Shown: positions 6,215-45,229, counted from the first letter of the stretch. The stretch is DNA of 64,000 nucleotides from an uncultured Faecalibacterium sp. (GCA_964466825.1 CAYXQN010000001.1:112-64111), one strand, 5' to 3'. Notes: generated by a model not told the origin, from the sequence alone. Numbers and translations: made by a program.

Positions 6215-6245
6215 TCAGTTTTCCTCCCTGTAAATCAGATGACAA

Positions 6246-8051: not shown

Positions 8052-8074
8052 TGCTCTATAAATCGTGGTGTTTT

Positions 8075-8125
8075 CCGTAGGACGTCTTACGGTTTTATTG
8101 TAATTTGCGCAAAGAGGTTTTGCAA
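8075..8125 (-). promoter_or_regulatory. Sigma-A promoter (TTGCAA-17-TACAAT) of the dehydratase-gntP operon with a palindromic operator over the start site
   Basis: Minus strand -35 at 8120-8125 and -10 at 8097-8102; near-perfect palindrome CCGTAGGACGTCTTACGG at 8075-8092. Confidence 0.65.
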
Positions 8126-8250
8126 GTCATCCCGGACAAGACCCACTTTTCGCCCAAAAAAGAGCGTTTCTTTGTTGCAGTTCGCTCAAAAAATCAGGAT
8201 ATCCTTGGCAAAAGTGCCAGAAGAACGGTGCGAAAACGATTCGGGAACAA

Positions 8251-8269
8251 AAAGTTGTCAGACAACTTT
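8251..8269. promoter_or_regulatory. Perfect palindrome AAAGTTGTC-A-GACAACTTT, candidate FadR/GntR operator
   Basis: Fits the GT-Nx-AC pattern of GntR-family operators; adjacent to the FadR gene. Confidence 0.5.
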
Positions 8270-8287
8270 GCATAAAAAAAGAGCCGG

Positions 8288-9004
8288 TCATTCGACCGGC
8301 TCGCCATCGTTCAGTTTTTTGATATAGGTGCGGTTGAAGTTCAGGTGCATCACCATTGCAGAGCGCGCCCCGATGGGGTCGTGCCGTGCAATGGCATCCA
8401 CCAGCATCCTGTGGGTCAGGATGGTCTCGTCCAGCAGTTTTTTGTGGGTAACATTGACGAACATTAGCACTGCTGTGTCGATGATGGGGATCAGCTGTTC
8501 CACCACCATGTTCTTACTGCTTTCTGCAATACAGGTGTGGAAGGCAATGTCATCTTCAATATAGCGCTCACCGCTCTGGATCTTAGACTCCACCCGGTCG
8601 CACAGGCGGCGGATCCGGTCGATGTCTTCTTCGGTGGCGTTCAGCGCCGCCATTTCTGCCATGCCGGGTTCCAGCAGGAGCCGCACATTGACAAGATCCA
8701 GCGCAAGAGCATTTTTGTCCTGCACTGAGCGCAGCCCCAGCGGATCAGACAGGCCTTTGGCCGTGGTCACAACATAAGTGCCGGAGCCGCGGCGCACCTC
8801 CACAATGCCCTTGCTGGACAGCAGCTTGATCGCTTCCCGGATGGTGCTGCGCCCCACGCCGAACTTTTCGCCCAACGCAAACTCATTTGGCAGCTTTGCG
8901 CCCGGCTCCAGAGGTGTGTCCAGAATGTAATGATAGATCTGGTCCTCCACCTGCTCGGCCAGGAGGGCGTGTTTCAGGTGTGAAAGTTCCCCCACAAAAA
9001 TCAC
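8288..9004 (-). CDS. FadR/GntR-family transcriptional regulator (FCD domain)
   Basis: PGAKLPNEFALGEKFGVGRSTIREA...RRGSGTYV HTH; DIAFH...N FCD motif. Confidence 0.92.
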   Translation of the reverse strand: MIFVGELSHLKHALLAEQVEDQIYHYILDTPLEPGAKLPNEFALGEKFGVGRSTIREAIKLLSSKGIVEVRRGSGTYVVTTAKGLSDPLGLRSVQDKNALALDLVNVRLLLEPGMAEMAALNATEEDIDRIRRLCDRVESKIQSGERYIEDDIAFHTCIAESSKNMVVEQLIPIIDTAVLMFVNVTHKKLLDETILTHRMLVDAIARHDPIGARSAMVMHLNFNRTYIKKLNDGEPVE

Positions 9005-9029
9005 CTGCCTGTTCTGTCTGCATAGCGGC

Positions 9030-9476
9030 TTACTTTTGCAAAGCGTTCAGCTCCGGCATCAGCTCGCCGCTGATAATGGTCAGCATTTCTTCCAGCTTTG
9101 CGCACTCCTCCGGGCTGAACCGGCTGCGGGCGCGCTCCACCACCGTGTTAAGGTATGCATAACTGATGTTATAATAGTCGATATATTTTTGGGTCGGGCG
9201 CAGATGGTATTCTCTGCGGTCAATGGAAGACTGCAGTTTTTCCAGATAGCCCTTGCGCACCAGGCAGCCGATCTTGTAGGCTGCATTGGGGGTGGAGATC
9301 TGCATCATGCGGGCAAACTCCGCAATTGTCGGCTCTCCCATCGCCATAATGCCTTCCATGCAAAAGGTCTCCACAGTTGTCAGCGGCGCATCCTTTTCGG
9401 TAAAGTGCTGGAAGACGTTTTGATAAAAGTGCAGTTTGAATTTGGTGTATACGTCCCGAAATGCTTTTTCCAGCAT
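9030..9476 (-). CDS. MarR-family winged-helix regulator
   Basis: PTIAEFARMMQISTPNAAYKIGCLVRKGYLEK...DRREYHL; RBS GGAGG before ATG at 9476. Confidence 0.85.
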   Translation of the reverse strand: MLEKAFRDVYTKFKLHFYQNVFQHFTEKDAPLTTVETFCMEGIMAMGEPTIAEFARMMQISTPNAAYKIGCLVRKGYLEKLQSSIDRREYHLRPTQKYIDYYNISYAYLNTVVERARSRFSPEECAKLEEMLTIISGELMPELNALQK

Positions 9477-9562
9477 GAGGCTGTGTCCTCCCTGTAAAAT
9501 CATTTTTCTTCAGTATACCACAAACAGCCCTCTGCGGAAAAGTATGATTTTTTGTGCAAAAA

Positions 9563-11242
9563 TCATTCTGCGTTTCCGGCCGGGTCCACAGGCTGTGCGG
9601 TACGGGCACGGATGATGCTCAGCACCACCAGTTCCAGCACAATGGCCGCTGCCAGGAACACCAGCGAGGTAAGCACGTTGGCTCTTGCGCCCAGCAGCAT
9701 CTGTGCCAGACCGGTCACCACATAGCATACCGCCGAGCACACCGCCACCGTAGCTGCGTAGGGCAGCTGAGTGGACACATGGTTCACATGGCTGCAATGC
9801 GCACCGGCCGATGCCATGATGGTCGTGTCCGAAATGGGCGAGCAATGGTCGCCACACACTGCACCGGACAAGCAGGCCGCAATGGAGATCACCAGCATTT
9901 CACCCTCCGGGAAGGCGTGGCATACGATGGGGATCAGAATGGAGAAGGTACCCCAGGAGGTACCGGTAGCAAATGCCAGGAACACTGCCACCAGGAAGAT
10001 GATAAAGGGCAGCAGATACTGCAGCGCCGCTGCACTGCCATTGAGCAGGTTTGCCACATAGTATTTTGCACCCAGCAAGCCGGTCATACCGGAAAGAGTC
10101 CATGCCAGGGTCAGGATCAGCATGGGGCTGACCATAGCCTTAAAGCCCTCCGGGATGCAGTCCGCAAATTCCTGGAAGGTCATGACCTCGCGCACCTGAT
10201 AGAACACAAAGGTGAACATCAATGCCATGCTGCTGCCCATCACAAGGCCCACCGAAGCATTGCAGTCCGCAAAAGCAGAGATGAAGTCGTTGCCCTCAAA
10301 AAAGCCGCCGGTATAGACCATACCAAAGATACACCCTGCGATCAGCACCAGCACCGGGGCCACCAGATCGATCACATGGCCTTTGCCCTCTGCGGTATCC
10401 TCCAGATCATCGCCATAGGGACGGTCCTCCGTGGTGAACAGATCACCCTTGACAGCGTTCTGCTCATGGAGCTTCATGGGGCCAAACTCCATCCCTGTAA
10501 AGATAAGAAACAGGCTCATGACCATGGTCAGGATCGCATAGTAGTTATAGGGGATGGTGCGCAGGAACATGGAAAAACCATTGATGCCAGAACTTTCCGG
10601 CACCGAGGAAGTAACCGCTGCTGCCCAGCTGGACACCGGCGCAATGATGCAGATGGGGGCGGCCGTAGAGTCGATCAGATAGGCCAGCTTTGCGCGCGAG
10701 ACGTTCTGACGATCGGTGACCGGGCGCATGACCGAACCAACAGTCAGGCAGTTGAAGTAGTCGTCCACAAAAATCATCACGCCCAGCAGCAGGGTCGCAA
10801 ACTGTGCCCCCGCACGGGTGTGGATATGGGTGGAGGCCCAGCGGCCAAAGGCCGCACTGCCGCCCGCCTTGTTCATCAGCGCCACCAGGATCCCCAGCAT
10901 GACCAGGAACACCAGGATGCCCACATTACTGGGGTCGGACAGTTTTGCGATCATACCGCCTTCTTCGTGGAAGAACAGCGTGTTGATCGTCAATTCCAGA
11001 TTGCCGTTTGCATACAGCAATGCACCAGATGCAATGCCCACCAGCAGCGAGGTATAGACCTCTTTGGTGTTAAGTGCCAGCACGATGGCAATGACCGGCG
11101 GCAGCAGCGAGAACGGCGTACTGTAAACGATACAGGTATAGGTAGACGGGTCGGCGATCTTGCCGGGAGTCGCCGCGCTGCACCACAGCAGCAGGGCAAA
11201 CACAAAGAGCGCGCCTGCCCAGGAGAGATTTTTGCTTTTCAT
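9563..11242 (-). CDS. NhaC-family Na+/H+ antiporter-like transporter
   Basis: IFVDDYFNCL, IDSTAAP, TGTSWGT and GDHCSPISDTT motifs. Confidence 0.9.
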   Translation of the reverse strand: MKSKNLSWAGALFVFALLLWCSAATPGKIADPSTYTCIVYSTPFSLLPPVIAIVLALNTKEVYTSLLVGIASGALLYANGNLELTINTLFFHEEGGMIAKLSDPSNVGILVFLVMLGILVALMNKAGGSAAFGRWASTHIHTRAGAQFATLLLGVMIFVDDYFNCLTVGSVMRPVTDRQNVSRAKLAYLIDSTAAPICIIAPVSSWAAAVTSSVPESSGINGFSMFLRTIPYNYYAILTMVMSLFLIFTGMEFGPMKLHEQNAVKGDLFTTEDRPYGDDLEDTAEGKGHVIDLVAPVLVLIAGCIFGMVYTGGFFEGNDFISAFADCNASVGLVMGSSMALMFTFVFYQVREVMTFQEFADCIPEGFKAMVSPMLILTLAWTLSGMTGLLGAKYYVANLLNGSAAALQYLLPFIIFLVAVFLAFATGTSWGTFSILIPIVCHAFPEGEMLVISIAACLSGAVCGDHCSPISDTTIMASAGAHCSHVNHVSTQLPYAATVAVCSAVCYVVTGLAQMLLGARANVLTSLVFLAAAIVLELVVLSIIRARTAQPVDPAGNAE

Positions 11243-31597: not shown

Positions 31598-31841
31598 CCT
31601 TATTTTAGCAGGCAAAGATGGTAAAATTGTGTAAATCCGCAATTATCTTCAGAAAATCTTCCACAAATAGAAGAACCGGATTTCAGCATTCTGCCCGACT
31701 GTTTTTTGGGCCCGATAAAACCGGACTGTTCCCTGCCCCAAAACAGTCTTTTCTCTGCAAACCCCGCCCGAACCAGTGCAAAAGCCGCCATTCTGTGGTA
31801 CAATAAAAGGGTATCCGATACCAAAAGGAAAGGATGTTTCC

Positions 31842-33272
31842 ATGCAGCTGTTTGAACGGATAAGCCCACGGCTGTTCCGCCCGTTGGCGGGGCGCAACCG
31901 GGCTTTTTATGCGGAGCTGTTGCTCCTGCTTTGGGAAGAATGCCGCCACACGGCAGATTACAGTATCTCTCGGGCCGAGGCGGTAAGCCGTGCCGAGGAT
32001 TATTTTGCGGCACTGGCAAAACCGCTTGCACTGGATGCGGACGACGCCGGGGACGAGGACGAACAGCCCACCCGGGACCCGCACACCCTGGCGCTGGGCT
32101 TTTTGCTGCGGCTGCGGCGCACCGGCTGGCTGGAAGAACAGCCCGGCAGCTACGAGTCGGAACCGACCCTCGCTTTTGTGCCGGAGGTCACCCCGCTGCT
32201 AGAGGCGCTGGAGGAGATCATGAACCCCCGCATCGTCACCTACACCGGCAAGCTCTACAAAGCGTGGCAGCTGCTGCGGGGCATCGGGGAAGAAAAAAGC
32301 CCCTACGAAAACGTCCTGCGGGAGGTGTCGGGCGATCTTGACACCCTCAACCGCAGCCTGCGTGCGCTGAATGCGTCCATCGGGCATTACATCGACCGCC
32401 TGACCCGCAACCGCACCCCGCAGGAGGTACTGGAGCTGTTTGACCAGTACGAAGAAAAGGTGGTCGCAGCGGCATATCACCGCTTTAAGACCAGCGATAA
32501 CCTGTTCAACTACCGTGCTTACCTGGAAGAAGGTCTGGACGACTGCGAGGCAAACTATCTGCCCCAGCTGGCACTGGACTATGCCCGGGTGGAACGCTGC
32601 GCTCCGAACGAGGCTGCCCCCGCCGTGCGGGCACTGATCCAACAGCAGCGGGATGCACTGGAAGAAATGAGCGATCTGCTGCGCCAGATCGATTCCAGCC
32701 ATATCCGTTACCGTAAGCGTGCAGTGCAGCGGGCGCAATTTTTGCTGCTCAGCGACCGTTCCGCACAGGGCAGCGTGACCGCATTGCTGCGCCGCTATGC
32801 GGAAGAGATCCGCACCCCGGACCAGCTCTTCGAGTTGGATGACGGCCCGGTGGCACAGCATCTGCATCTCTACCCGGCGGCAGTGTTCGGCGCAAAGCCG
32901 CTCTATCCGCCCGCTGCACCCCGTTCCACTGCGCCGCTTGCTCCGGTGCGCACCGAAACATTCGACCCCGAACAGCTGCAAAAAGAACAGCAGCTGCTGC
33001 TGGAGTATGCCCGCCTTGCCGTGACCGAAGAAAACGTCGGGCTGCTGGCGCAGCAGGCTTTGGCGGCCCGTCCCCGGGTTGCAGCATCCACACTGGCAGA
33101 GGAATACCCTGCCGACTTTGCCCGTATCATCGGGCTGCACACCTATTCTCAGTCGCCCCACCGGGACTACGACATTGAACTGACCGGGAACTGGGTGGAG
33201 CGCAGCGGGTTCCGCTTTGAGGAATTCATCCTGACCCGCCGTAAGGAGGACACGAACGATGGCAACCATTAA
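31842..33272 (+). CDS. jetA: Wadjet JetA / MksF-like kleisin (DUF5716-like)
   Basis: MQLFERI...FRPLAGRNR.FY...L N-terminus and LRRTGWL winged helix; first gene of the kleisin-KITE-SMC triad; RBS GGAAAGGA. Confidence 0.8.
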   Translation: MQLFERISPRLFRPLAGRNRAFYAELLLLLWEECRHTADYSISRAEAVSRAEDYFAALAKPLALDADDAGDEDEQPTRDPHTLALGFLLRLRRTGWLEEQPGSYESEPTLAFVPEVTPLLEALEEIMNPRIVTYTGKLYKAWQLLRGIGEEKSPYENVLREVSGDLDTLNRSLRALNASIGHYIDRLTRNRTPQEVLELFDQYEEKVVAAAYHRFKTSDNLFNYRAYLEEGLDDCEANYLPQLALDYARVERCAPNEAAPAVRALIQQQRDALEEMSDLLRQIDSSHIRYRKRAVQRAQFLLLSDRSAQGSVTALLRRYAEEIRTPDQLFELDDGPVAQHLHLYPAAVFGAKPLYPPAAPRSTAPLAPVRTETFDPEQLQKEQQLLLEYARLAVTEENVGLLAQQALAARPRVAASTLAEEYPADFARIIGLHTYSQSPHRDYDIELTGNWVERSGFRFEEFILTRRKEDTNDGNH

Positions 33273-33855
33273 CATGCTGGAAGAGACCGCAAACTATCTG
33301 CTCAACCACTGCTTCGTGCTGGGCGGAGTTGAAGATCAGCGGGCAAAATATCTCTATGTGCAGGATCATCTGGACGAAGTGCGGGCGGTGTTTGCACCGC
33401 TGGGCTACTCGGTGCTGCTGTATCCGGCTCCGCTGCAGGCTGCAGCGCTGGTCAACGAGCACGAAGGCAGCCAGGCCCGGCTTTTGAAATACGAAAGCAT
33501 TTTGCTTTTGGTGCTGCGGCTGCTCTACCTGCAAAAGCGCGAAAGCCTTGCCGCCAGTGCTGATGAGGTGCTGGTGACTGTGGAAGAAGTGCAGACCGAG
33601 CTGCAAAAGATGAACCTGCCCCGCCGGCTGGATCAGCTTACGCTGGAAAAACTGCTGCGCACCCTGCGCCGCTACAATCTGGCCCGTCCGGTAGGGCGGC
33701 TGACCGGACTGGACAGCCGTATTGAGGTGTTCCCGACTGTGCTGCTGGCGCTGCCGGATGCCGACCTTGCGGATGCCGCCGCCGAGAGCACCCGCACCCG
33801 CACCGAGCTTGGCCTGTATGAACGTGCAGAGGATGCACCGGAGGTGGAAGAATGA
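33259..33855 (+). CDS. jetB: Wadjet JetB / MksE-like KITE subunit (DUF4194-like)
   Basis: About 200 aa; ESILLLVLRLLY, LRRYNL and IEVFPT motifs; overlaps both neighbours. Confidence 0.82.
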   Translation: MATINMLEETANYLLNHCFVLGGVEDQRAKYLYVQDHLDEVRAVFAPLGYSVLLYPAPLQAAALVNEHEGSQARLLKYESILLLVLRLLYLQKRESLAASADEVLVTVEEVQTELQKMNLPRRLDQLTLEKLLRTLRRYNLARPVGRLTGLDSRIEVFPTVLLALPDADLADAAAESTRTRTELGLYERAEDAPEVEE

Positions 33856-36800
33856 TCGAACTCAAACGGCTCAAGCTCATCAACTGGCACAACTTTGAAA
33901 ATGCCACCTTCGACTGCTCCCGTCTGACCTACATGATCGGTGTCAACGCCGTGGGCAAGACCACCATTCTGGATGCCATCCGCTACTGTCTGACCACCAA
34001 CCGCAACTTCAATGCGCTGGGCAACAAAAAGAGCGGGCGCACCCTGCAAGGCTCGGTCCATGCAAAGCAGCGCGGCGAAAATGCCTACCGCCGCCCGGGA
34101 CATACTGTGGCCTACATCGGTGCAGAGTTCTGGGATACGGTCAAGCGCTGCCCCTTTGTTATCGCCGTGCGGGTAGAGTCCGAAGGCCCCATGCAGGAGC
34201 TGCACCCCGGCGACCAGACATGGTATCTTTCGGAGGACGGCTGCACGCTGGAGCAGCTGCCCTTCATTGACCCCAAGACTGGCGCACCCAGCGCCAAAGA
34301 AGACTTCAAGCCTGCCTCCGGGCGGCTGTCCTATACCCGCAGCCCCAGCGAAGCGCGTGACCGCATCTGCCGCGCGCTGGGCATCGGACGGGCCTCCAGT
34401 CCGCTGGGCAAAAAGTTCAACGAGGTGTTCCAGATGGGCACCAGCATGGACGAGATCCCGAACTTCCGGGAGTTTTTGTATCAGTACATCCTGCCCCAGC
34501 CGGAACTGGATCTGGAAGCACTGCAGGGCGACCGCCTGGAGCTGGAAAACCTGCACGCTGTTTTAGCCGAAGCACAGACCCGTGCAAATGCGCTGGATGA
34601 GATCGTCTCCTTTGGGCGGGAAGCCGCCGAAAAGCAAACGCAGGCGCTGGTCAACCGTGGTGCAGCTCTGCTGGCCCGGGCCGAAGCCGATGAGGCCGAG
34701 CAGGCTGTCTGGCAGGAGCATCTTGCCGCCGGTCAGCGCCAGAAAGAGCAGCTCACCGCCCGCTATGCCGAAGCAAAGGCAGCCGAAGCCGAAGCCCGCC
34801 GCAGCTATCTTGCAGCGCACGGGGCGGCATCCGCCAGCGGCGAAGGACGTGCGCTGGATGCCATGACCGAGGAACTGACCCGCCGGCAGAACGCACTTCA
34901 GACCGCACAGCGCCGTGCATCGCAGACTGAGGCTGCCGCCGAGCGGACCGATACCCTGCTTGCCATCCTGCGGCGCAGCGGCTTTACCGATGCACCCGCT
35001 GCCAACACTGCGGTGGTCACAGCAGAAACCCTGCCCGCACTGACCAACTGGCTTGCTGCGCAGGAAAAACCGCTGGAAGAAGCCTACCTTGCGGCACGCC
35101 AGAACACCGCCGCTTTGCAAAAGGAGCAGACCCAGCGCCGCACCGAGTTGGATGCCGTGTCCGGCGGCAAGTGGGTCTATCCCCATGGTGATGCCGCCAC
35201 CCGTGTGCGGGACGCAGTGAACGCTGAGCTGAAAAGCCGCGGTATGCAGCCAGACGCAAAGATCTTCTGTGAGCTGCTGAGCGTGGAGGACGAGAGCTGG
35301 CAAGACTGCGTGGAAGCCTGCCTTGGCGACCGCCGGTTCGATATCCTTGTGCCGCCCGCCCATTATGAAGCCGCCAAGAGCGCATTCGTGGCGCTGAAAG
35401 AAAAGGTAGGCCCCATCAGTCTGCTGGACACTCCGGGCATCCGCAAGGCGAGCCGCCGTGCGGATACTGCCCCGGCCGACAGCCTTGCCGCACAGGTCTC
35501 CAGTGAGAACCCTCTGGCGGCACAGTACGCTGACACCATCCTGCGGCGGATCGTCTGCTGCGATACTCCTGACACGCTGGAAAACCACCCCGACAGCGCA
35601 ACGAGAGACCTGCTGCGCCACCACCCCTTCCGGTTGGAGCGTCTGCGCACCCCGCAGCGCTACATCGGTCTGGAAGCCCGCCGCAGCCGTGCCGAAGCAC
35701 TGGCGCAGCAGCTTGCTGCCCTGGGCGAGGAGGTCAAGGCGGCAGCGCAGACCGAGCAGAATCTCAAAGCTGCCTACCACCAGCACCAGAGTTTGCTGCG
35801 GGGCAGCAGCCTGGACGAGCTGACCGGTTTGTGGGATGCCCGCACCGCCCTTGCCGCAGCACAGGCAGCGGTCTCTGAGCAGGAAAAGACCCTTGCCGAA
35901 GCAAAAGAGAACCCCATGCTGCAGCAGCTGTACCGGGAGGAAGAAGCCCGCGAGGCTGCGTGGGAGGCAGCCCGCACCGCTGTCGAGCAGGTGGGCGGCG
36001 ATCTGCGCGTGTGCGAAAAGCAGCTGGCTTCCTGCGAGGCAGAGCAGGCCAAGGCCGGCGAGACCGCCCAGAACAGCCGCTCTGCCGCCGAACGATTCTT
36101 TGCCGGGTATCCGCTGGTAGAGCCGCTGGCACGCACCCGGATGCAGACATTGACCGGACCGGACAAAACGCCCCGTGCCGCTGCGCAGGCAGCCGAAAAG
36201 GCACAGGCAAAGCTGGACGATGCGCTGGCACTCTATCTCTCCGGCACGCTGGAACCGGCACAAAAAACCTACAACGAGCGCTACGTCTGCGACTATCCGC
36301 TGGGGCTTGCCGGGCTTGATCAGTACCGCGCCCAGTACGAGAGCCTTGTGCGCATCGACCTGGAGCGCTATGCTGCCCGCCTGGAACAGGCACAGCGGGA
36401 CTGCAAAGACCGTTTCCGCAAGGACATCCTGTTCCGCATGAAGGATGATATCTTCAACGCACGCCGCCAGTTCCGGGAGCTGAACAAGGTGATGGAGCAG
36501 CTCACCTACGGCGAGGAGGTCTACCGCTTTGAGCTGGAACCCAGCCGTGACCCGCAGCTTGCCGCCTTCTATCAGGTCATCGTGGACAAGGGCAACCAGC
36601 AGATGACCGAGGGCGACAGTCTGGACAACCTTGCCGCCACCGCCGACCCCGCCTACGAGCGTCAGGTGGACGAGCTGATGGAAAAGATCATGGCCGATGT
36701 GGACGAGAACACCCGTGCCCGGCAGGAAGGCCGCCGTGCCGAAGGCGTCACCCTGTCGGACTATGTGGATTACCGCACCTATCTGGACTATGATATCAAG

Positions 36801-37154
36801 GTCACCAACCGTGTCACCGGACAGCAGGCCTACCTGTCCCGGGTCAGCCGGGATTCCTCCGGCGGCGAGAATCAGGCCCCCTTCTATGTGGCCATCTGCG
36901 CTTCTCTGCTCCAGATCTATCAAAAGAGCGAGAACAGCGTCCGTCTGGTGCTGCTGGACGAGGCCTTCAGCAAGATGACCAGCGACCGTATCCGCCCCAT
37001 GATGGAGCTGTTCCGCCGTCTGCAGCTGCAGGTGCTGCTTATTTCCACGGTCGAAAAGAGCACCGCCATCCAGCCCTACTGCGACATCACTTACTCCATC
37101 GTGCGCCACGGCGATGCCAACGCTATCGCACCGTTTGTAAAAGTACGGGAATAA
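33852..37154 (+). CDS. jetC: Wadjet JetC / MksB-like SMC ATPase
   Basis: LINWHNF, Walker A GVNAVGKTT, long coiled coils with a hinge, signature SSGGE, Walker B LLDEAF. Confidence 0.9.
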   Translation: MIELKRLKLINWHNFENATFDCSRLTYMIGVNAVGKTTILDAIRYCLTTNRNFNALGNKKSGRTLQGSVHAKQRGENAYRRPGHTVAYIGAEFWDTVKRCPFVIAVRVESEGPMQELHPGDQTWYLSEDGCTLEQLPFIDPKTGAPSAKEDFKPASGRLSYTRSPSEARDRICRALGIGRASSPLGKKFNEVFQMGTSMDEIPNFREFLYQYILPQPELDLEALQGDRLELENLHAVLAEAQTRANALDEIVSFGREAAEKQTQALVNRGAALLARAEADEAEQAVWQEHLAAGQRQKEQLTARYAEAKAAEAEARRSYLAAHGAASASGEGRALDAMTEELTRRQNALQTAQRRASQTEAAAERTDTLLAILRRSGFTDAPAANTAVVTAETLPALTNWLAAQEKPLEEAYLAARQNTAALQKEQTQRRTELDAVSGGKWVYPHGDAATRVRDAVNAELKSRGMQPDAKIFCELLSVEDESWQDCVEACLGDRRFDILVPPAHYEAAKSAFVALKEKVGPISLLDTPGIRKASRRADTAPADSLAAQVSSENPLAAQYADTILRRIVCCDTPDTLENHPDSATRDLLRHHPFRLERLRTPQRYIGLEARRSRAEALAQQLAALGEEVKAAAQTEQNLKAAYHQHQSLLRGSSLDELTGLWDARTALAAAQAAVSEQEKTLAEAKENPMLQQLYREEEAREAAWEAARTAVEQVGGDLRVCEKQLASCEAEQAKAGETAQNSRSAAERFFAGYPLVEPLARTRMQTLTGPDKTPRAAAQAAEKAQAKLDDALALYLSGTLEPAQKTYNERYVCDYPLGLAGLDQYRAQYESLVRIDLERYAARLEQAQRDCKDRFRKDILFRMKDDIFNARRQFRELNKVMEQLTYGEEVYRFELEPSRDPQLAAFYQVIVDKGNQQMTEGDSLDNLAATADPAYERQVDELMEKIMADVDENTRARQEGRRAEGVTLSDYVDYRTYLDYDIKVTNRVTGQQAYLSRVSRDSSGGENQAPFYVAICASLLQIYQKSENSVRLVLLDEAFSKMTSDRIRPMMELFRRLQLQVLLISTVEKSTAIQPYCDITYSIVRHGDANAIAPFVKVRE

Positions 37155-37166
37155 GGAGGTCTCCTT

Positions 37167-37493
37167 ATGTTCGATTTTCTCAAAAAGAAGGACCAGACCC
37201 CGCCTGTTCTGCCGGAAGGCACTGTTCGGCGGCGCTATTCCATCCAGGGTCAGGTACAGGGTGTCGGCTTCCGCTATCGGGCACAGTATGCCGCCCAGAA
37301 CCTTGACCTGACCGGCTGGGTGCAAAACGAAGATGACGGCAGTGTAACGCTGGAAGTGCAGGGTGACCCGGAAAAGTTCATGGCAATGTTTGCAATGATC
37401 CAAAAAAGCGATTACATCCAGATCACCTCCATCCGGCACACGGACTGTGCCCCCGATCCCTGGGAGCGCCGCTTTGCGGTGCGGGGCTACTGA
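37167..37493 (+). CDS. acyP: Acylphosphatase
   Basis: GQVQGVGFRY and GWVQNEDDGSV motifs. Confidence 0.92.
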   Translation: MFDFLKKKDQTPPVLPEGTVRRRYSIQGQVQGVGFRYRAQYAAQNLDLTGWVQNEDDGSVTLEVQGDPEKFMAMFAMIQKSDYIQITSIRHTDCAPDPWERRFAVRGY

Positions 37494-37537: not shown

Positions 37538-37567
37538 AGGCAGCTGCATTTTGCAGCTGCCTTTTTT
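37538..37567 (+). terminator. Intrinsic terminator of the jetABC-acyP unit
   Basis: AGGCAGCTGCA-TTT-TGCAGCTGCCT-TTTTT. Confidence 0.8.
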
Positions 37568-37748: not shown

Positions 37749-38399
37749 ATGGCGATCGTAAGTCCTTCCATTCTTTCCGCAGATTTTACAACCCTTGGCG
37801 CAGACTGCCGCACCGTGCTGGATGCCGGTGCCCAGATGCTCCATTATGATGTGATGGACGGTCACTTTGTGCCCAACATCAGCTTTGGCGTGCCGGTGCT
37901 CAAAAGCCTGCACAAGGGCCTGCCCGAAGCATTTTATGACGTACACCTGATGATCAGCCACCCGCTGACCTATGCCGAACCTTTTGCCAAGGCCGGTGCC
38001 ACCCTGCTCAATTTCCATCTGGAATGTGAGGATGACATCCGTCAGACTTTGGATGCCATCAAAGCGCTTGGCTGCAAAGTCGGCCTGACCATCAAACCCG
38101 GCACTCCTGCCCAGGCACTGGAGCCATATCTGGACGAGCTGGACCTGGTGCTGGTCATGAGCGTTGAGCCCGGCTTTGGCGGGCAAAAGTTCATGCCTTC
38201 GGCTCTGGACAAACTGCGCTGGCTCAAGGAGCAGCGTCAGGCAAGGGGTGCGCACTTCCTGCTGGAAGTAGACGGCGGTGTGGACGACACTACCGCTCCC
38301 CTGTGTGTAGAGACCGGCGCTGATGTTCTGGTCGCCGGCAGCGCCGTGTTTGGCGCAGCAGATCCTGCAGCGGCGGTACGCCGTCTTGCTGCACTTTGA
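37749..38399 (+). CDS. rpe: Ribulose-phosphate 3-epimerase
   Basis: PSILSADF, HYDVMDGHFVPN, DVHLM, MSVEPGFGGQ and EVDGG motifs. Confidence 0.96.
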   Translation: MAIVSPSILSADFTTLGADCRTVLDAGAQMLHYDVMDGHFVPNISFGVPVLKSLHKGLPEAFYDVHLMISHPLTYAEPFAKAGATLLNFHLECEDDIRQTLDAIKALGCKVGLTIKPGTPAQALEPYLDELDLVLVMSVEPGFGGQKFMPSALDKLRWLKEQRQARGAHFLLEVDGGVDDTTAPLCVETGADVLVAGSAVFGAADPAAAVRRLAAL

Positions 38400-38412: not shown

Positions 38413-39432
38413 ATGGATGAGATTCAGATCCAATTGCAGGAGCAGGAGCTGCAAAAGACCGGCAGATACTACAAGCACATCTGCTGGATGACCATCCCCC
38501 TGCTGTGCATGGCCTGTTTTTTGTACGGCCTGCGCCCTCTGGTACTGTGCGGCATTGCACTGCTCACCGGCAACCTTTGTGACCGTCTGGTGTCCCTGCT
38601 GCGTCACCGGGTCTACCAGAACAGCGACCTTTCCAACGAGAGCTTTGCGCTGCTCATTGCCCTTTTAATGCCTGCCACTGTGGACATTTATGTTCTGGTG
38701 GCTGCCGTTGTTGCGGGTGTTCTTGTTGGCAAAGAGATTTTTGGCGGCTACGGCAGCTATCCCTTCCACCCTGCCGCCGTCGGCTATGTGATCGCAGCGG
38801 TGTCCTGGCCGGAGCAGGTCCTGCTGTATCCGCAGCCCTACACGATCATCCCCCTGTGGGACACCGCCGGCATTCCCCTTTCCGCCGCATTGGAGGAGAC
38901 CCTGCGCAGCGGCGGTATGCTGAACATCAGCCCCATGGCCCTTGGCCTTGGCGAAGTTGCCGGTCCCATGGGCACCGGCGCTGCCCTGATCATTCTGGCC
39001 TGCTGCCTGTTTTTGTGGACGCAGGGCGACATCCGTCTCAGCGCTTCTTTCAGCTTTGTGCTCACCTGCGGCCTGGTAGCCTTTTTCTTCCCCCGTCAGG
39101 TGGGTCTGGCCGACACCTCCTTTTTGCTGAACTATGCCGCCCGGTTTGCCGGTGTCCGGGACGAGCTGCTCAGCGGCGCCGTCCTGTTCTGCGCTGTGTT
39201 CCTGCTCAACGAACCCTACACCTGTGCCCATCACCGGATCGGCCGTATCCTGTACGGTGTACTGGTGGGTCTGGCAAGCATGGGCTTCCGGTATTTTGGT
39301 GTATACGATACCGGCGTGTGCTTTGCACTGCTGGCGGTCAACAGCGTATCTGCCTGGATCGACCGTACCGAGCTGCAGGTGTACAAACTGCTGCACCATG
39401 GCAGCAAAAACAAAAAGGAGGCCGCACGATGA
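38413..39432 (+). CDS. RnfD/NqrB-like membrane protein, divergent (no FMN-attachment motif)
   Basis: KEIFGGYG.YPFHPAAVG, LLSG, GRILYG and FGVY..GVCFALL..N align with RnfD; the (S/T)xATPL motif is absent. Confidence 0.8.
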   Translation: MDEIQIQLQEQELQKTGRYYKHICWMTIPLLCMACFLYGLRPLVLCGIALLTGNLCDRLVSLLRHRVYQNSDLSNESFALLIALLMPATVDIYVLVAAVVAGVLVGKEIFGGYGSYPFHPAAVGYVIAAVSWPEQVLLYPQPYTIIPLWDTAGIPLSAALEETLRSGGMLNISPMALGLGEVAGPMGTGAALIILACCLFLWTQGDIRLSASFSFVLTCGLVAFFFPRQVGLADTSFLLNYAARFAGVRDELLSGAVLFCAVFLLNEPYTCAHHRIGRILYGVLVGLASMGFRYFGVYDTGVCFALLAVNSVSAWIDRTELQVYKLLHHGSKNKKEAAR

Positions 39433-40145
39433 GAAAACAGATTGCAGAACTGATCGTGCAGGACCCCGGCAAGTACGCCCACCACGACCGTATCTTTTTG
39501 AACAACCCCGTCGTCATGCAGGGCATGGGCCTGGCACCCTTGGTGGTGCTGGCTACCAGCGGTAAAAACGCTTTGCTGATGGCTGCTGCAGTGGCCCTGC
39601 TGCTTACACCGTCCCGTCTGCTGGCCTGTCTGGTCAGCAAACTGGCCCCCCTGCCGGAAGACCCTTCGCCGGAGCTTCTGGAAAAGCGGCTGCTGCCCCG
39701 GGCCATCCTTTACTGCCTGAGCACCTCGGTCGTATACCTGGCTGTCTACTGGCTGCTGAACCGTTTTTTTGGCACCGACCTGCTGAGCCTTGGCATCTAT
39801 CTGCCCATGCTGGTGGTCGAACCCCTGATGATCTATCGCTTTGGCCGTGTGCAGGAGCCTGCTTATAAGGCACTTTCCAAGGGCATCCGCATTACCCTTG
39901 GCTATGCTTTGCTTCTGATCATCGTTGGCTGCCTGCGGGAATGGCTTGCCGTCGGTTCCATGTTCGGGCTGGCGATCAGCCGCCCGGTTCTGCCTGTAGC
40001 CAGTATGCCGGCTGGCGGTTTTATCGTGCTGGGCGTTTTGTGCGCTGTCTGGCGCGCACTGGCCCAGAGCCGCCGTGATTTCCTGGAAAAAGAGGCCAAT
40101 GAAGTGCTGGCTGTGCACGGCCAGCAGGAGGAGGAACTGCAATGA
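39429..40145 (+). CDS. RnfE/NqrD-like membrane protein, divergent
   Basis: NNPVVMQGMGLAPL, SLGIYLPMLVV, GCLREWL and PAGGFIVLG align with RnfE. Confidence 0.8.
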   Translation: MRKQIAELIVQDPGKYAHHDRIFLNNPVVMQGMGLAPLVVLATSGKNALLMAAAVALLLTPSRLLACLVSKLAPLPEDPSPELLEKRLLPRAILYCLSTSVVYLAVYWLLNRFFGTDLLSLGIYLPMLVVEPLMIYRFGRVQEPAYKALSKGIRITLGYALLLIIVGCLREWLAVGSMFGLAISRPVLPVASMPAGGFIVLGVLCAVWRALAQSRRDFLEKEANEVLAVHGQQEEELQ

Positions 40146-40753
40146 GAGACGTTGTTGTGACCAGTGCGGTCTTTTTCTCCTATGCACTCCTGGCCATTTT
40201 TGCGCAAAATGCAGTATTCACCCGTGCGCTGGGCGTATCCCGCCTGGTCCAGCTGGTGGGCGATGACCGCACCAGCAGCTGGCTGTTTGGTTTTCAGCTG
40301 TGCATCACCCAGCTGTGCGTTGCGCCGCTGGCCTGGTGGGCCGGCAGCTTTATCGCTTCGCTGGAAAACCGCGCACAACTGCGGCCGCTGGTCTATGTGC
40401 TCTGCATCGTTGCCGTCTGTGCCGTGGAACACGGTATCCTGTGGTTTTGCAAGGCACTGCCCCACCGCAGTGCTCTGCTGCGCATCGTTCCGCTTGCAGG
40501 CCTGAACAGCTGTGTGCTGGGCACCGTGCTTGTGGAGCGCACCCAGAGCTTTACCCTGGGACAGTCTTTGGGCTTTGGCTTTGGCAGCGGCGTGGGTTAT
40601 ATCCTGGCCGTGCTCCTGATCACTGAGGCCCGCACCCGCCTGCGCAGCCCTGCCATCCCCCGGACGTTCCGCGGCCTGCCCATCACTCTGGTATATATCG
40701 GCGTGCTGGCACTGGCCATCTATGGCTTTACCGGCCATGCTGTGATCCTGTAA
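40142..40753 (+). CDS. RnfA/NqrE-like membrane protein, divergent
   Basis: QNAVFTRALGVS, PLAGLNSCVLG and RL....IP..FRGLPITL..IG..ALAIYGF align with RnfA. Confidence 0.82.
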   Translation: MRDVVVTSAVFFSYALLAIFAQNAVFTRALGVSRLVQLVGDDRTSSWLFGFQLCITQLCVAPLAWWAGSFIASLENRAQLRPLVYVLCIVAVCAVEHGILWFCKALPHRSALLRIVPLAGLNSCVLGTVLVERTQSFTLGQSLGFGFGSGVGYILAVLLITEARTRLRSPAIPRTFRGLPITLVYIGVLALAIYGFTGHAVIL

Positions 40754-40776
40754 CTATCGGCTGGAGGGAAAATACG

Positions 40777-41886
40777 ATGGCAAAATACAAACGCAAAAAA
40801 GTCAAGCGCTACCACCGCAGCTTTTACACCGGCACTGCCCGGATCCGGCTTGTTGCCGGCATCCTTCTGCTGCTGGTGGTGGTTCTTGGTGCTGCATGGT
40901 TTGCAGCACCCCATGTTCTGGACTGGGCGACCCACACCTGGTATACCGTGGTAAAGGGCCGCGATCTGGCTGCAGAAGCCTCTTCGGCGGTTTCTTCGGC
41001 AGCTTCCCAGGTGCAGAACGAGGCTGCAGCCTCCTCCAGTACTGCCGAACCGGTGGACCCGCAGCCCGAACCGCAGCCGGAGCCCTTGGACGGCAAAGCC
41101 ATGGACAAGGGCAGCTGGACTGTGCTGGACCGCAGTCTGCTGACCGACGAGGACAGCATTACGGCCGCTGCCCGGCAGCTGGCACAGCAGGGCACTGCCT
41201 ACGCCCTGATCACCTTTAAGGACGAAAGCGGCAGCATCTATTATGCTTCTGCTGTGGCCAATGCCGCAGACAGTATTGCAGAGCAGACGGTGGACGCAGG
41301 CCGCATCGCCGCCCTGCTGCGGCAGCAGGGCATTATCCCTGTGGCACAGCTCTGTGCCTTCCAGGACCCGGTCGCTGCATACACCGACCGCAGCATGGCC
41401 ATCCACTACAGTGCGGAGATGCTCTGGCTGGACAACGTCAGTGCAGCAGCAGGCGGCAAGCCCTGGCTCAACCCTTATGCGGACAGTGCTGTTCAGTTTG
41501 TGGGCGACCTGGTGGAGGAGCTGCGGGACCTGGGCTACGAACAGATGGTCCTGACCGGAGTGCAGTTCCCCAAATATATCAGCGCCAAACAGGATTTTGG
41601 CGCCACCAATGGCAAGGGCCGTGCGGCCCAGCTCCAGGCGGACATTGCCGCCTGGCAGCAACGCTTTGGCGACAGTGTTGTTCTGTGGCTGAGTTACCCG
41701 CTCCAGCAGTGCACCACCGCCAGCAACGCACTGGAAGTGCCCGCTGTGCAGCTGGGCATGACCCATCTGCTTGCAACTGCAGATGATCCTCTGGATGCTG
41801 CGGCCCGCAGCAGACTGGAACAGGCTGCCGCCGCTGCCGGCATCCAGCATCTGGTGATCCGCCAGGATCCCAGCGATTTTCAGTAA
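40777..41886 (+). CDS. Membrane-anchored putative glycoside hydrolase (DUF4015-like TIM barrel)
   Basis: Basic N-terminus plus TM helix; FKDESG.IYY, GIIPVAQLCAFQD, WLNPY and LGYEQMVLTGVQFP motifs. Confidence 0.7.
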   Translation: MAKYKRKKVKRYHRSFYTGTARIRLVAGILLLLVVVLGAAWFAAPHVLDWATHTWYTVVKGRDLAAEASSAVSSAASQVQNEAAASSSTAEPVDPQPEPQPEPLDGKAMDKGSWTVLDRSLLTDEDSITAAARQLAQQGTAYALITFKDESGSIYYASAVANAADSIAEQTVDAGRIAALLRQQGIIPVAQLCAFQDPVAAYTDRSMAIHYSAEMLWLDNVSAAAGGKPWLNPYADSAVQFVGDLVEELRDLGYEQMVLTGVQFPKYISAKQDFGATNGKGRAAQLQADIAAWQQRFGDSVVLWLSYPLQQCTTASNALEVPAVQLGMTHLLATADDPLDAAARSRLEQAAAAAGIQHLVIRQDPSDFQ

Positions 41887-41935: not shown

Positions 41936-43228
41936 ATGAACCAGACATCCTGCTTTACACCCGCATCGATCCTTCTGCCTGACGAGCGCATCCCTCTGGA
42001 ACAGTGGGGCTGCATCGCCTGCGACCAGTTTACCAGTGACCTGGCCTACTGGCAGCGTGCTCAGCAGACCGCTGCCGGCAGCCCCAGCACGCTGGACCTG
42101 ATCCTGCCGGAGGTCTATCTGGAAGAAGGCGATGTGGACCAACGGGTCCAGACGATCCACTCTGCCATGGACACCGCCCTGCGCGAGGTGTTGACCCGCA
42201 CGGTCAATGGCTTTGTTTATGTAGAGCGCACCGAGCAGAGCGGCCGGATCCGGCAGGGCCTTGTGGGCAAAGTCGATCTGGAAAGCTACAACTTCCGCCC
42301 GGGCGCAGGCTGTGCGGTGCGCCCCAGCGAACGCACTGTAGAAAGCCGCATCCCTCCCCGCATGAAGGTCCGCACCGGTGCCGCACTGGAAACGCCGCAT
42401 ATCATGATGCTGGCCGATGACCCGGACTGCACTGTGGTGGAACCCATTGCTGCCCACAAGGCGGATCTGCCCAAGTTGTACGAGGGCGAGCTGATGCTGG
42501 GCGGCGGCCATATTGCAGGCTGGGCAGTGGAAGACCCTGCCCTGCTGGAGCAGGTGCAGCAGGCTCTGGCCATCCTTGGCTCTGAACAGACCATGCTCCA
42601 GCGGTATCCACAGGCAAAAGGCCGTGCACCCCTGACCCTTGCGGTGGGCGACGGCAACCATTCGCTGGCTACGGCCAAGGCCTGCTGGGAGGAATTGAAA
42701 AAGACCCTTACCCCCGAACAGGCCGAGACGCATCCGGCACGCTGGTGCCTTGCTGAGCTTTGCAATGTACATTCCCCCGCCATCGAGATCGAGCCCATCC
42801 ATCGGGTTCTGTTCAATGCAGACTGCACCTCGGTCCTGCTGAGTCTGATGCGCTGGAGCGATGAAAACATGACCGGCATCTGCTTTGGACGCGAAAAGAA
42901 GCAGCCCTTCAAGCTGGCCGGCCCCCGCATGACCAACGACCTCTGCTTTGAGGACCCCACTGCCACCCTGACCGTAGGCACCATCGACGAATTTATCGAA
43001 TATTTCCTTGAGCGCCATCCGGAGGCCAAGGTGGACTATGTCCACGACGAGCCGGCTGTGCGCGCATTGTGCCAGAAAGGCGCTGTTGCCTTTTTGATGC
43101 CGCCCTTTGCCAAGAGCGACCTGTTCAAAGGCGTTGTGCTGGGCGGCGTGCTGCCCCGCAAGACCTTTAGCATGGGGCACGCCGAGGAAAAACGTTACTA
43201 CCTCGAGTGCCGTAAGATCATAGAATGA
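41936..43228 (+). CDS. DUF1015 family protein
   Basis: IACDQFTS, E.T...R...R, AVGDGNHSLATAK and LPRKTFSMG motifs. Confidence 0.85.
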   Translation: MNQTSCFTPASILLPDERIPLEQWGCIACDQFTSDLAYWQRAQQTAAGSPSTLDLILPEVYLEEGDVDQRVQTIHSAMDTALREVLTRTVNGFVYVERTEQSGRIRQGLVGKVDLESYNFRPGAGCAVRPSERTVESRIPPRMKVRTGAALETPHIMMLADDPDCTVVEPIAAHKADLPKLYEGELMLGGGHIAGWAVEDPALLEQVQQALAILGSEQTMLQRYPQAKGRAPLTLAVGDGNHSLATAKACWEELKKTLTPEQAETHPARWCLAELCNVHSPAIEIEPIHRVLFNADCTSVLLSLMRWSDENMTGICFGREKKQPFKLAGPRMTNDLCFEDPTATLTVGTIDEFIEYFLERHPEAKVDYVHDEPAVRALCQKGAVAFLMPPFAKSDLFKGVVLGGVLPRKTFSMGHAEEKRYYLECRKIIE

Positions 43229-43240
43229 CCTAGGAGTATA

Positions 43241-45229
43241 ATGACATTTAACGAACTGAATCTTTCCGCCCCGCTCCTGCGCGCTGTGCAGGAAGCCGGC
43301 TACGAGACCCCGTCCCCCATTCAGGCAGCGGCTATCCCGCCGGTGCTGGCCGGCCGGGATCTGATGGGCTGTGCCCAGACCGGCACCGGCAAAACGGCAG
43401 CCTTTGCGCTGCCCATGCTGGACCGCCTGACCGCCGCACAGCCCCGCAAACAGGGTGCCGTCCGTGCCCTGATCCTGACCCCCACCCGTGAGCTGGCCCT
43501 GCAGATCGGCGACAGCTTTGCGGCCTACAGCAAGTATCTGCATCTGCGCAGCGCCGTCATCTTTGGCGGTGTTGGTCAGGCACCGCAGGTCGAGACCCTG
43601 AAAAAAGGTGTCGATATCCTCATCGCCTGCCCGGGCCGTCTGAACGACCTGATCGGTCAGGGCCATGTTGACCTGTCGGACCTTGAGATCTTTGTTCTGG
43701 ACGAAGCCGACCGTATGCTGGACATGGGTTTTGTCCACGACGTCAAAAAGGTGATCGCAAAGCTGCCCCAAAAGCGGCAGAACCTGATGTTCAGCGCCAC
43801 AATGCCCACGGAGATCGAGCAGCTTGCCGCCGGCATCCTGCACGACCCTGCCTTTGTCAAAGTAGACCCGGTCTCCAGCACGGTAGAGCGGATCCAGCAG
43901 ACTCTTTATCATGTAGAAAAAGGCAACAAAAAGCTGTTGCTGCCCTGGCTGATCAAAAAGTTGGACCCTCCGGTGATCAACGCCCTGGTCTTCAGCCGTA
44001 CCAAATACGGCGCTGATAAGATCGCCAAGGACCTGACCAAGCAGGGCATCCCCGCTGCTGCCATCCACGGCAATAAAAGCCAGACCGCCCGTGTTACCGC
44101 CCTGGAAAATTTCAAGGCCGGCAAAACCCGTGTGCTGGTGGCCACCGACATTGCAGCCCGGGGCATCGATATCAGCGAGCTGAGCCATGTGTTCAACTAC
44201 GATCTGCCGGAAGTGCCTGAAACCTACGTCCACCGCATTGGCCGCACCGCCCGTGCCGGAGCCGATGGCACTGCCATCAGCTTCTGTGCCCCGGAGGAAC
44301 AGGAATATTTGGCCGGCATTGAAAAGCTCAACCGCCGCAAGATCCCGGTGATCTCCGGCCATCCCTGGGACGGTGTGCCCGCCCCGGTCAAAACAGCCCC
44401 GCCGGTACGGGGCCGCAAACCCAAAGCGGAAGCACAGCCCGCTGCTGTGCCCGCCAAGCCCGAAACCAAGGCTGCCCCGGCAAAGCCTGCCGCAGCGCTG
44501 CCGACCGAACATCAACAAGAGGAACGATCCATGGAAAATACCAAACGCAATCCCGGCAGCCGCAATGACGGCCGCCGTTCCAATAATAACCGCCGCCCCC
44601 GTCAGGAAGCCGGCAATCCCCCCGCACGGGGCAGCAATGCACAGCCCAAATTTGACCCCCACTTTGTCACCGCACCGGAGGCCACGCCCCTGCGTCCGGC
44701 CAAAAAGGCCCCCGCACAGCCTGCTGCTCCTGCCGCACGCGCACCGCAGAACAACCAGAACGCAGCTGCCGCCCAGACTCCGTCCGCTGCACAGAACAAG
44801 AACCGTTCCAATCAAAAGGCGTCCTCTGCTGCCCGCAGTGCACAGCCTGCCCGCGGCAACCGCCAGGAGCGCCCCGCTCAGAAGAACAACAATCCGTCCG
44901 CTTCCGGCAGCAATTCCAAACAGAACCGCAGTGCCGAGCGCGCCCCCCGCAGCAACGAGCGCAGTGACCGTGCCCGCAATGCGGCCCGTGTGGAGCAGAT
45001 GCTGCAGAAAAACCAGGCTGCCAGCCGCAACGCACAGCCTGCCCGCAGCCAGAATGCCCCCCGCACCAAAGAGCAGCCTGTCCGCAGCCGTCGTAGCGCC
45101 CGGGATGACGATCCGGGTCTGGTGCTGATCAGCCGCCGCCCGCCGCAGCAGAAGTTCACCAGCTTTGAGGAGTATATGAGCGCCCATGGCGGCGCTACCG
45201 CTCCCATCGAGGATCATAGCGAAGAATGA
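43241..45229 (+). CDS. DEAD-box RNA helicase (RhlE-like) with a long basic disordered tail
   Basis: Q motif, [26 protein letters not shown] and HRIGRTAR motifs. Confidence 0.95.

Follow-up and report, generated by a model that had tools for sequence, protein, structure and literature searches.

Background

Are genes that carry the names of Rnf electron-transport subunits still part of an electron-transport complex when both their partner genes and their cofactor ligands are gone? This question is raised by a locus of an uncultured Faecalibacterium sp., in which an RnfD-, an RnfE- and an RnfA-like gene (named D', E' and A' here) stand directly downstream of rpe on the same strand (+) and are followed by a gene for a membrane-anchored DUF4015-like protein. 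The locus lies in a stretch of 64,000 nucleotides (nt; GCA_964466825.1 CAYXQN010000001.1:112-64111), referred to below as the window, from a Faecalibacterium metagenome-assembled genome (MAG) that is 83% complete. An earlier note, made from the sequence of the window, had described the three genes as an apparently cofactor-less membrane trio that is coupled to a glycoside-hydrolase-like protein and, by inference, repurposed for a non-redox role. The analysis presented here shows that D', E' and A' make up a lineage-specific paralogue of the Rnf membrane core and not an Rnf complex, and we regard it as secure that the trio is a conserved, selected derivative of this core that is unable to work as Rnf. 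Its job, very probably, is an undescribed one that databases mislabel as electron transport.

The warning of the earlier note that automated annotation would mislabel the trio turned out to be justified, as both the public annotation, in which D' is labelled as an RnfD subunit, and one paper (PMC10781979) call it Rnf. This transcriptome paper on F. duncaniae mentions "two putative rnf operons (rnfDEA ..., rnfCDGEAB ...)", and beyond this mention of a putative rnf operon no description of the paralogue was found in the literature.

A paralogue of the Rnf membrane core next to a canonical rnf set

The trio consists of D' (38413..39432, +), an RnfD/NqrB-like polytopic membrane protein of 339 aa (PF03116, 177 bits), E' (39429..40145, +), an RnfE/NqrD-like protein of 238 aa (PF02508, 88 bits), and A' (40142..40753, +), an RnfA/NqrE-like protein of 203 aa (PF02508, 79 bits). 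ATGA overlaps at D'/E' and E'/A' point to translational coupling, and a GGAGG-type ribosome-binding site (RBS) precedes each of the two overlaps. Neither rnfC nor rnfG nor rnfB was found in the locus by gene calls and hidden Markov model (HMM) families, so that the description of three overlapping RnfD/E/A-like genes without these partners was borne out by gene calls, Pfam and the locus scan alike.

All three proteins lie above the Pfam gathering thresholds for the PF03116 and PF02508 superfamilies, with D' covering profile positions 12-289 of 296 and matching the solved RnfD chains 8ahx_D, 9eri_D and 7zc6_D at E values of 1e-13 to 5e-10, whereas their NCBIfam scores remain far under the curated cut-offs (118 vs. 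207 bits for rnfD, 46.6 vs. 213.4 for rnfE, and 72.3 vs. 229.3 for rnfA). When set beside Rnf (RnfCDGEAB, the Na+/H+-translocating ferredoxin:NAD+ oxidoreductase; 9ERI of A. woodii, 7ZC6 of C. tetanomorphum, 8AHX of A. vinelandii), D', E' and A' are full-length homologues of RnfD, RnfE and RnfA, they share the D-E-A order save for the absent G, and they carry the KxxFGG and NPA motifs, the RE pair of E and the PxxFxGLP motif of A. The six subunits C, D, G, E, A and B are encoded together in Rnf, however, while only D-, E- and A-like ones are encoded here; the cluster has no RnfG or RnfB, and the trio of this genome also lacks the RnfC-like gene (C') that precedes D' in related genera. The Na+-translocating NADH:quinone oxidoreductase (Na+-NQR; NqrB/D/E core, 7XK3) is comparable in being another derivative of the Rnf core whose RnfC homologue, NqrA, has also lost cofactors, and the trio gives weak matches to NqrD and NqrE; unlike the trio, Nqr retains the [2Fe-2S] cysteines, the covalent flavins and NqrC/NqrF, and the trio scores lower on the Nqr models than on the Rnf models.

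The separate, complete rnf set that the earlier note had envisaged is present in the same genome, with rnfC-rnfD on contig C164 and rnfG-E-A-B on contig C120. These canonical genes pass the NCBIfam cut-offs, except for RnfG, whose open reading frame (ORF) is truncated by the end of the fetched locus and which remains below its cut-off. As the canonical set is located on other contigs, the trio is an extra paralogous set and not the Rnf of the cell.

Loss of the cofactor sites

In A. woodii, the [2Fe-2S] cluster in the membrane is held by C25 and C113 of RnfA together with C25 and C108 of RnfE, and RnfD carries a covalent flavin mononucleotide (FMN) on T156 and has N123 and D249 as riboflavin ligands (PMC11889175). 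The corresponding positions of the trio were read by alignment to the solved subunits of A. woodii and C. tetanomorphum and to the canonical genes of the genome itself. All four cysteines of this AE1 [2Fe-2S] cluster are replaced, as had been claimed for E' and A': E' has A36 and P132 at the two RnfE positions, with Glu131 taking the place of the Asn immediately before the second lost Cys (alignment to 7zc6_E), while in A' S33 takes the position of C25 and S123 that of C113, the neighbouring C124 corresponding to A114 (alignment to 9eri_A) and Arg34 adjoining the first lost Cys.

In D', GIPLSAALEETL stands opposite DQLSKATPL of the genome's own RnfD, and its LSAALEETL does not contain the canonical flavinylation motif [ST]-x-A-[ST]-P-L. 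Further differences from the canonical protein are FHPA for FNPA, MGT for LGE, LNE for ATD and YDTG for YTEG, and the riboflavin-ligand positions are occupied by H119 and E267. The earlier claim that the flavin site of D' is lost can be kept for the motif only, since T163 lies one residue off the register of the FMN-bearing Thr in a loop that is not confidently alignable; the safe statement is that the motif is absent, not that there is no Thr.

Among 63 Faecalibacterium loci, A36, E131 and P132 of E' and S33, R34 and N122 of A' are invariant, while position 124 of A', the adjacent Cys in the window, is not conserved (C in 36, G in 25). Over about 110 genera, E' has Cys at neither ligand position in any genus, and A' has none at ligand position 1 and keeps the position-2 Cys in only about 6 in 10. 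Many members of the family have an Arg directly after the first lost Cys of A', and the acidic residue of E' arose mostly on that background.

Conservation, distribution and selection

One locus per genus was collected from 112 genera and all ORFs were classified by HMMs built here. E' is present in 110 of the 112 loci and A' in 107, rpe immediately precedes D' or C' in 103, and the DUF4015-like gene follows A' in 78. The order rpe-D-E-A-DUF4015, the conservation of which had been put up for checking by the earlier note, is thus well kept in its rpe, E' and A' parts, but not in its last gene. The first gene of this order, rpe (37749..38399, +), encodes ribulose-phosphate 3-epimerase in the window (TIGR01163, 254 bits, cut-off 213). 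Conserved flanking genes beyond rpe and the DUF4015-like gene were sought in four loci, and the flanks differ between genomes.

A single-protein search gave D'-type matches in 144 of the 151 genera of the window's GTDB family, usually two per genome, a strong one to the paralogue and a weak one to the canonical protein. As the D' profile does not split the paralogue from canonical RnfD at the class level (canonical proteins reach 210-246 bits), the A' profile, which separates the paralogue (≥ 199 bits) from canonical RnfA (≤ 136 bits), was used for the wider survey. In 400 genomes of the class, it found the paralogue in no other order, and in 30 families of the order it found it only in three, the window's own family and two others, which are f1 (14/18), f3 (3/18) and f91 (1/5, borderline). 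Four loci (L008, L010, L017, L021) have a D' that is 71-77% identical to that of the window under titles such as Bacteroides sp. CAG:545, Barnesiella intestinihominis, Bacteroides uniformis or Oxalobacter sp., and look like mislabelled or mis-binned MAGs with Faecalibacterium-type DNA.

The ORFs of D', E' and A' are all intact, and residues that are new, family-specific and invariant are present in the trio. Pairwise dN/dS values (Nei-Gojobori method, NG86) over 62-63 Faecalibacterium loci were 0.24 for D', 0.28 for A' and 0.29 for E', compared with 0.14 for rpe, 0.18 for the DUF1015 gene located downstream and 0.34 for the DUF4015-like gene, all of them rough values, since the pairs are non-independent and dS is high and partly saturated. 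The trio is thus constrained by purifying selection, weaker than that on its housekeeping neighbours, and the view that intact ORFs argue against decay stood up to the dN/dS check (0.24-0.29).

Some loci depart from the common layout. In a genome of about 1.0 Mb (G136; L107, 7415-10402), C', D' and E' occur without A', and E' is followed after 25 nt by a topoisomerase IV/gyrase A-type gene; lacking a partner of inverted topology, this E' would have to self-pair or act alone. In genomes of 0.7-0.9 Mb, D' is the sole RnfD-type match and the fetched loci contain no E' or A' (L105 of G116, 0.9 Mb, 5451-10704; L106 of G086, 0.7 Mb, 7938-8870). The D' of L105, which retains both the Asn and the Asp of the riboflavin site, sits between a GT2 glycosyltransferase with an unknown 384-aa protein and GlmS; the ORF upstream of it was considered as a diverged C' and rejected, as neither Fe-S motifs nor a Pfam match were found in it. 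In L268 (G015, a genome 65% complete), D' and E' are each represented by two HMM matches (200 + 104 bits with the D' profile, 67 + 61 bits with the E' profile), which suggests frameshifts or a broken copy in one genome.

An RnfC-like subunit in related genera and the order of losses

In 45 of the 112 loci, an RnfC-like C' lies between rpe and D'. It matches rnfC best (135-154 bits; cut-off 246) and retains the SLBB domain and two ferredoxin-type motifs, with both CxxCxxCxxxCP motifs (eight Fe-S cysteines) intact in 45/45. In place of the FMN loop G(L/M)GGAGFPT of RnfC it has a newly conserved motif, I(V/I)DExDG, and is left with no pyridine-nucleotide site. C' was searched for in the window's own genome and found neither in the locus nor elsewhere in the 83% that is covered. 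The term "cofactor-less" in the earlier note consequently describes this locus as far as the AE1 cysteines and the flavinylation motif are concerned, but not the 45 of 112 genera in which the 4Fe-4S motifs of C' and the riboflavin-ligand Asn of D' occur.

The order in which parts were lost was approached with a quick IQ-TREE phylogeny of D', rooted on canonical RnfD and supported by the Shimodaira-Hasegawa-like approximate likelihood ratio test (SH-aLRT). The D' paralogue is monophyletic (99) with the C'-bearing lineages basal, and the window falls inside a clade of 60 genera without C' (98) and, within it, in a subclade of 22 genera (97). In the E' of this subclade, an acidic residue (Asp or Glu) takes the place of the Asn in front of the second lost Cys, and most of its members no longer have the DUF4015-like gene. 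The tree requires at least 5 changes of state for C' and at least 16 for the DUF4015-like gene. The trio accordingly descends from a C'D'E'A' cluster, the window belonging to a derived clade that lost C'.

The riboflavin ligands differ along the same series. Canonical RnfD has Asn in 27/27 and Asp in 27/27, the D' of C'-bearing genera has Asn in 44/45 and Asp in 33/45 (with Glu in 10 more), other D' without C' have Asn in 26/43 and Asp in 32/43, and the window's clade has Asn in 6/24 (His in 16) and Asp in 9/24 (with Glu in 12 more), a pattern that fits a residual module of C' (Fe-S) and riboflavin decaying after the loss of C', but since the tree offers only two supported independent contrasts between C' presence and the Asn/Asp states, the comparison has no power and the association is descriptive only.

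The DUF4015-like protein

The fourth gene (40777..41886, +) starts 23 nt after A' behind an RBS of the sequence GGAGGG and encodes a membrane-anchored protein of 369 aa (PF13200, 48.8 bits, cut-off 27), in which the Pfam match is confined to positions 31-165 of the 313 of the profile. An AlphaFold2 model based on 78 orthologues (mean predicted local distance difference test score 84.6) shows an N-terminal helix (21-64) that is joined to an eight-stranded barrel by a disordered Ser/Ala/Pro linker, and the Lys/Arg-rich N-terminus predicts, by the positive-inside rule, that the barrel faces outward. The family profile matches the solved DUF4015 protein 4s1a (E 7e-36), which is also the first Foldseek match of the model (E 7e-14, template modelling score 0.84 on the length of 4s1a), followed by Cwp19 (5oq2, E 1e-9) and, further down, by GH20 hexosaminidases, dispersins, PgaB and TM1410. 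Literature on DUF4015 amounted to a single incidental mention in our search.

Cwp19 of C. difficile is a peptidoglycan lytic transglycosylase (PMC6016235), for which Asp196-Tyr197 is the candidate catalytic pair (PMC5765458). With DUF4015 (PF13200; 4S1A, Cthe_0052) and the GHL10 protein Cwp19 (5OQ2) the protein shares the glycoside-hydrolase-type barrel and K148, D197, W217, D219 and E248, which are nearly invariant among the orthologues; it differs in having an N-terminal membrane anchor instead of a signal peptide or cell-wall-binding repeats. The Asp-Tyr of the FDY motif, likened to Asp196-Tyr197 of Cwp19 by motif, is variable across the family: LTGVQFP stands opposite FDYIRFP of 4s1a, placing T260-G261 at the pair, so that TGVQFP in place of DY.RFP had been read correctly. 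Among the 78 orthologues the motif position holds D in 27, E in 7 and other residues in 44, and within the genus position 260 is T in 31, E in 17 and S in 11. By analogy with Asp196 of Cwp19, the FDY Asp is a candidate catalytic residue, and the protein of the window probably binds rather than cleaves a glycan.

The coupling of the trio to this protein, as proposed in the earlier note, applies to the window, where the genes are adjacent, but is facultative elsewhere, the gene being present in 78/112 loci and mostly absent from the 22-genus subclade. The trio persisted through at least 16 changes in the state of this gene, and its role is therefore independent of the DUF4015-like protein. A complex prediction for D', E' and the DUF4015-like protein, with A' left out, scored 0.00 and counts neither for nor against binding.

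Proposed function and alternatives

What could a Rnf membrane core do without its redox centres? The A/E pair of Rnf changes from an inward-open to an outward-open state and back around the [2Fe-2S] cluster, with Na+ passing beside it (PMC11889175). Given this alternation and the presence of a presumably buried Glu beside an Arg at the former cluster site, we rate a non-redox module that translocates or gates cations or a small solute as the best explanation of the trio, with a probability of roughly 0.45. A' and E' would keep an Rnf-like alternating-access motion in which the cluster is replaced by a buried acid/base pair of Glu131 (E') and Arg34 (A'). D', E' and A' would be transcribed with rpe and, in this genus, with the DUF4015-like protein of Cwp19-like fold, which would sit on the outer face and act, as an optional accessory, on an envelope glycan of the N-acetylhexosamine type. 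The earlier note had likewise arrived at a non-redox transporter, channel or scaffold, an inference graded too strongly there, as H119 and E267 of D' could still hold riboflavin.

Several observations weigh against a translocating or gating module. The contact between Glu131 and Arg34 is inferred from positions beside the cluster ligands, and the acidic residue, being restricted to one subclade, cannot account for the function of the whole family. In D', T163 is invariant in the 63 Faecalibacterium loci (its position is variable across the family), and position 119 is Asn in 42/63 and His in 21/63, with Glu at position 267 in 63/63; since the change from Asp to Glu is conservative and Asn119 is frequent, D' may still bind a flavin non-covalently. 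The co-occurrence of C' carrying conserved 4Fe-4S motifs with the riboflavin-ligand Asn of D' in 45 genera implies that the ancestral module was probably still redox-linked, and the basal position of these Fe-S-bearing lineages points the same way. The roughness of the dN/dS values and the descriptive character of the link between C' and the riboflavin ligands have to be counted here as well.

A wider proposition, which we consider doubtful, is that living genomes record the stepwise conversion of a redox-driven Na+ pump. The C'D'E'A' cluster would be its first stage, a hitherto unrecognised membrane module with two 4Fe-4S clusters and a riboflavin site but with no pyridine-nucleotide site, AE1 cluster or periplasmic flavins, and the window its second, a cofactor-site-free alternating-access transporter in which the Glu-Arg pair replaces the mid-membrane Fe-S cluster. 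If this were true, the A/E pair would translocate ions without a redox centre, with a bearing on how electron and ion transfer are coupled in Rnf and Nqr.

Instead of moving ions, the trio could be a membrane anchor and a transducer of force or signal for the glycosidase-like protein, comparable to FtsEX with its hydrolases, and would control the remodelling of the wall or of an exopolysaccharide. RnfG, whose anchor is likewise one N-terminal helix, docks into the RnfA/E cavity (PMC11889175), and the DUF4015-like protein, with its N-terminal anchor helix and its gene after A' in 78/112 genera, could fill the vacated place; its nearest folds are Cwp19 (PMC6016235), GH20 hexosaminidases, dispersins and PgaB, and envelope-glycan genes (MBOAT with DHHW, an HGSNAT-like acetyltransferase, GT2, GlmS) are neighbours in some genomes. 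We nevertheless hold this role to be unlikely, because most of the 22-genus subclade keeps D'E'A' without a gene whose state changed at least 16 times, the presumed catalytic Asp is present in only 27 (plus 7 Glu) of 78 orthologues, and the flanking envelope genes are not conserved between loci.

Still less probable for the trio as a whole is a residual redox device, in which D' would hold riboflavin non-covalently and receive or deliver electrons via C' where this is present, for instance as a flavin or quinone reductase linked to ferredoxin; its partner in Faecalibacterium would have to be the canonical RnfC or another Fe-S protein. The riboflavin of NqrB, the RnfD homologue of Na+-NQR, is the electron donor to quinone. 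In keeping with such a device, the eight Fe-S cysteines of C' are retained in all 45 genera, where D' also keeps Asn in 44/45 and Asp or Glu in 43/45, and in Faecalibacterium Asn119 occurs in 42/63 species and Glu267 in all. On the other hand, C' was not found in the locus or the 83%-complete genome of the window, its FMN/NADH loop is gone where it does occur, and with H119 and without AE1 ligands, G or B the window provides no trans-membrane electron route. This explanation is more attractive for the C'-bearing genera than for the window.

The genomes of 0.7-0.9 Mb, where D' is the only RnfD-type match, has no E' or A' in the fetched loci and keeps Asn and Asp, would suit a D'-centred importer or binder of flavin or another small molecule to which E' and A' are accessory, and the fold of NqrB and RnfD is channel-like. 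We judge this improbable, given that E' and A' are kept with D' in 107-110 of 112 loci under similar constraint and that the riboflavin ligands are relaxed positions in the window's clade. A decaying, functionless rnf duplicate, as the lost cofactor ligands and an evolution faster than that of rpe could indicate, is hardly credible for intact, translationally coupled ORFs with dN/dS of 0.24-0.29, D'-type matches in 144/151 genera and new family-specific invariant residues.

Regardless of which function applies to the trio, to list it as another rnf operon is almost certainly an error where electron transport is concerned. This matters because Faecalibacterium and related bacteria rank with the most abundant members of the human gut microbiota and models of their energy metabolism are built on annotation, and the trio is a conserved membrane system that most genera of a large gut family possess. 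To work on Rnf and Nqr, an A/E/D core stripped of its cofactors, along with intermediates bearing an Fe-S-containing C', offers a natural control for the redox-independent parts of the ion pathway.

Neighbouring genes

An intrinsic-terminator-like hairpin 3' of acyP (37538..37562, +; an 11-bp stem with 7 GC pairs, followed by TTTTTT) marks the upstream limit of the rpe-D'-E'-A' transcription unit. Further upstream (31776-37493), there are three long co-directional ORFs of 498, 198 and 1100 aa and one of 108 aa that ends at this strong terminator; the earlier note lists them separately as a jetABC/acyP cluster. On the downstream side, a gene for a DUF1015 protein (430 aa) and one for a DEAD-box helicase with a low-complexity tail of about 280 aa, rich in Ala, Pro, Gln and Asn, follow on the same strand (41936-45229), and no terminator-like site was detected between the DUF4015-like gene and these two. 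In two distant genera, an HtrA-type protease is encoded just upstream of rpe (L104, 11822-15596; L099, 3672-5141), accompanied in L104 by a HAMP histidine kinase and an OmpR-type regulator, an envelope-stress-type context that is not conserved in the window. The DUF1015 gene is also located 3' of the cluster in the close relatives L090, L091, L093, L094 and L189.

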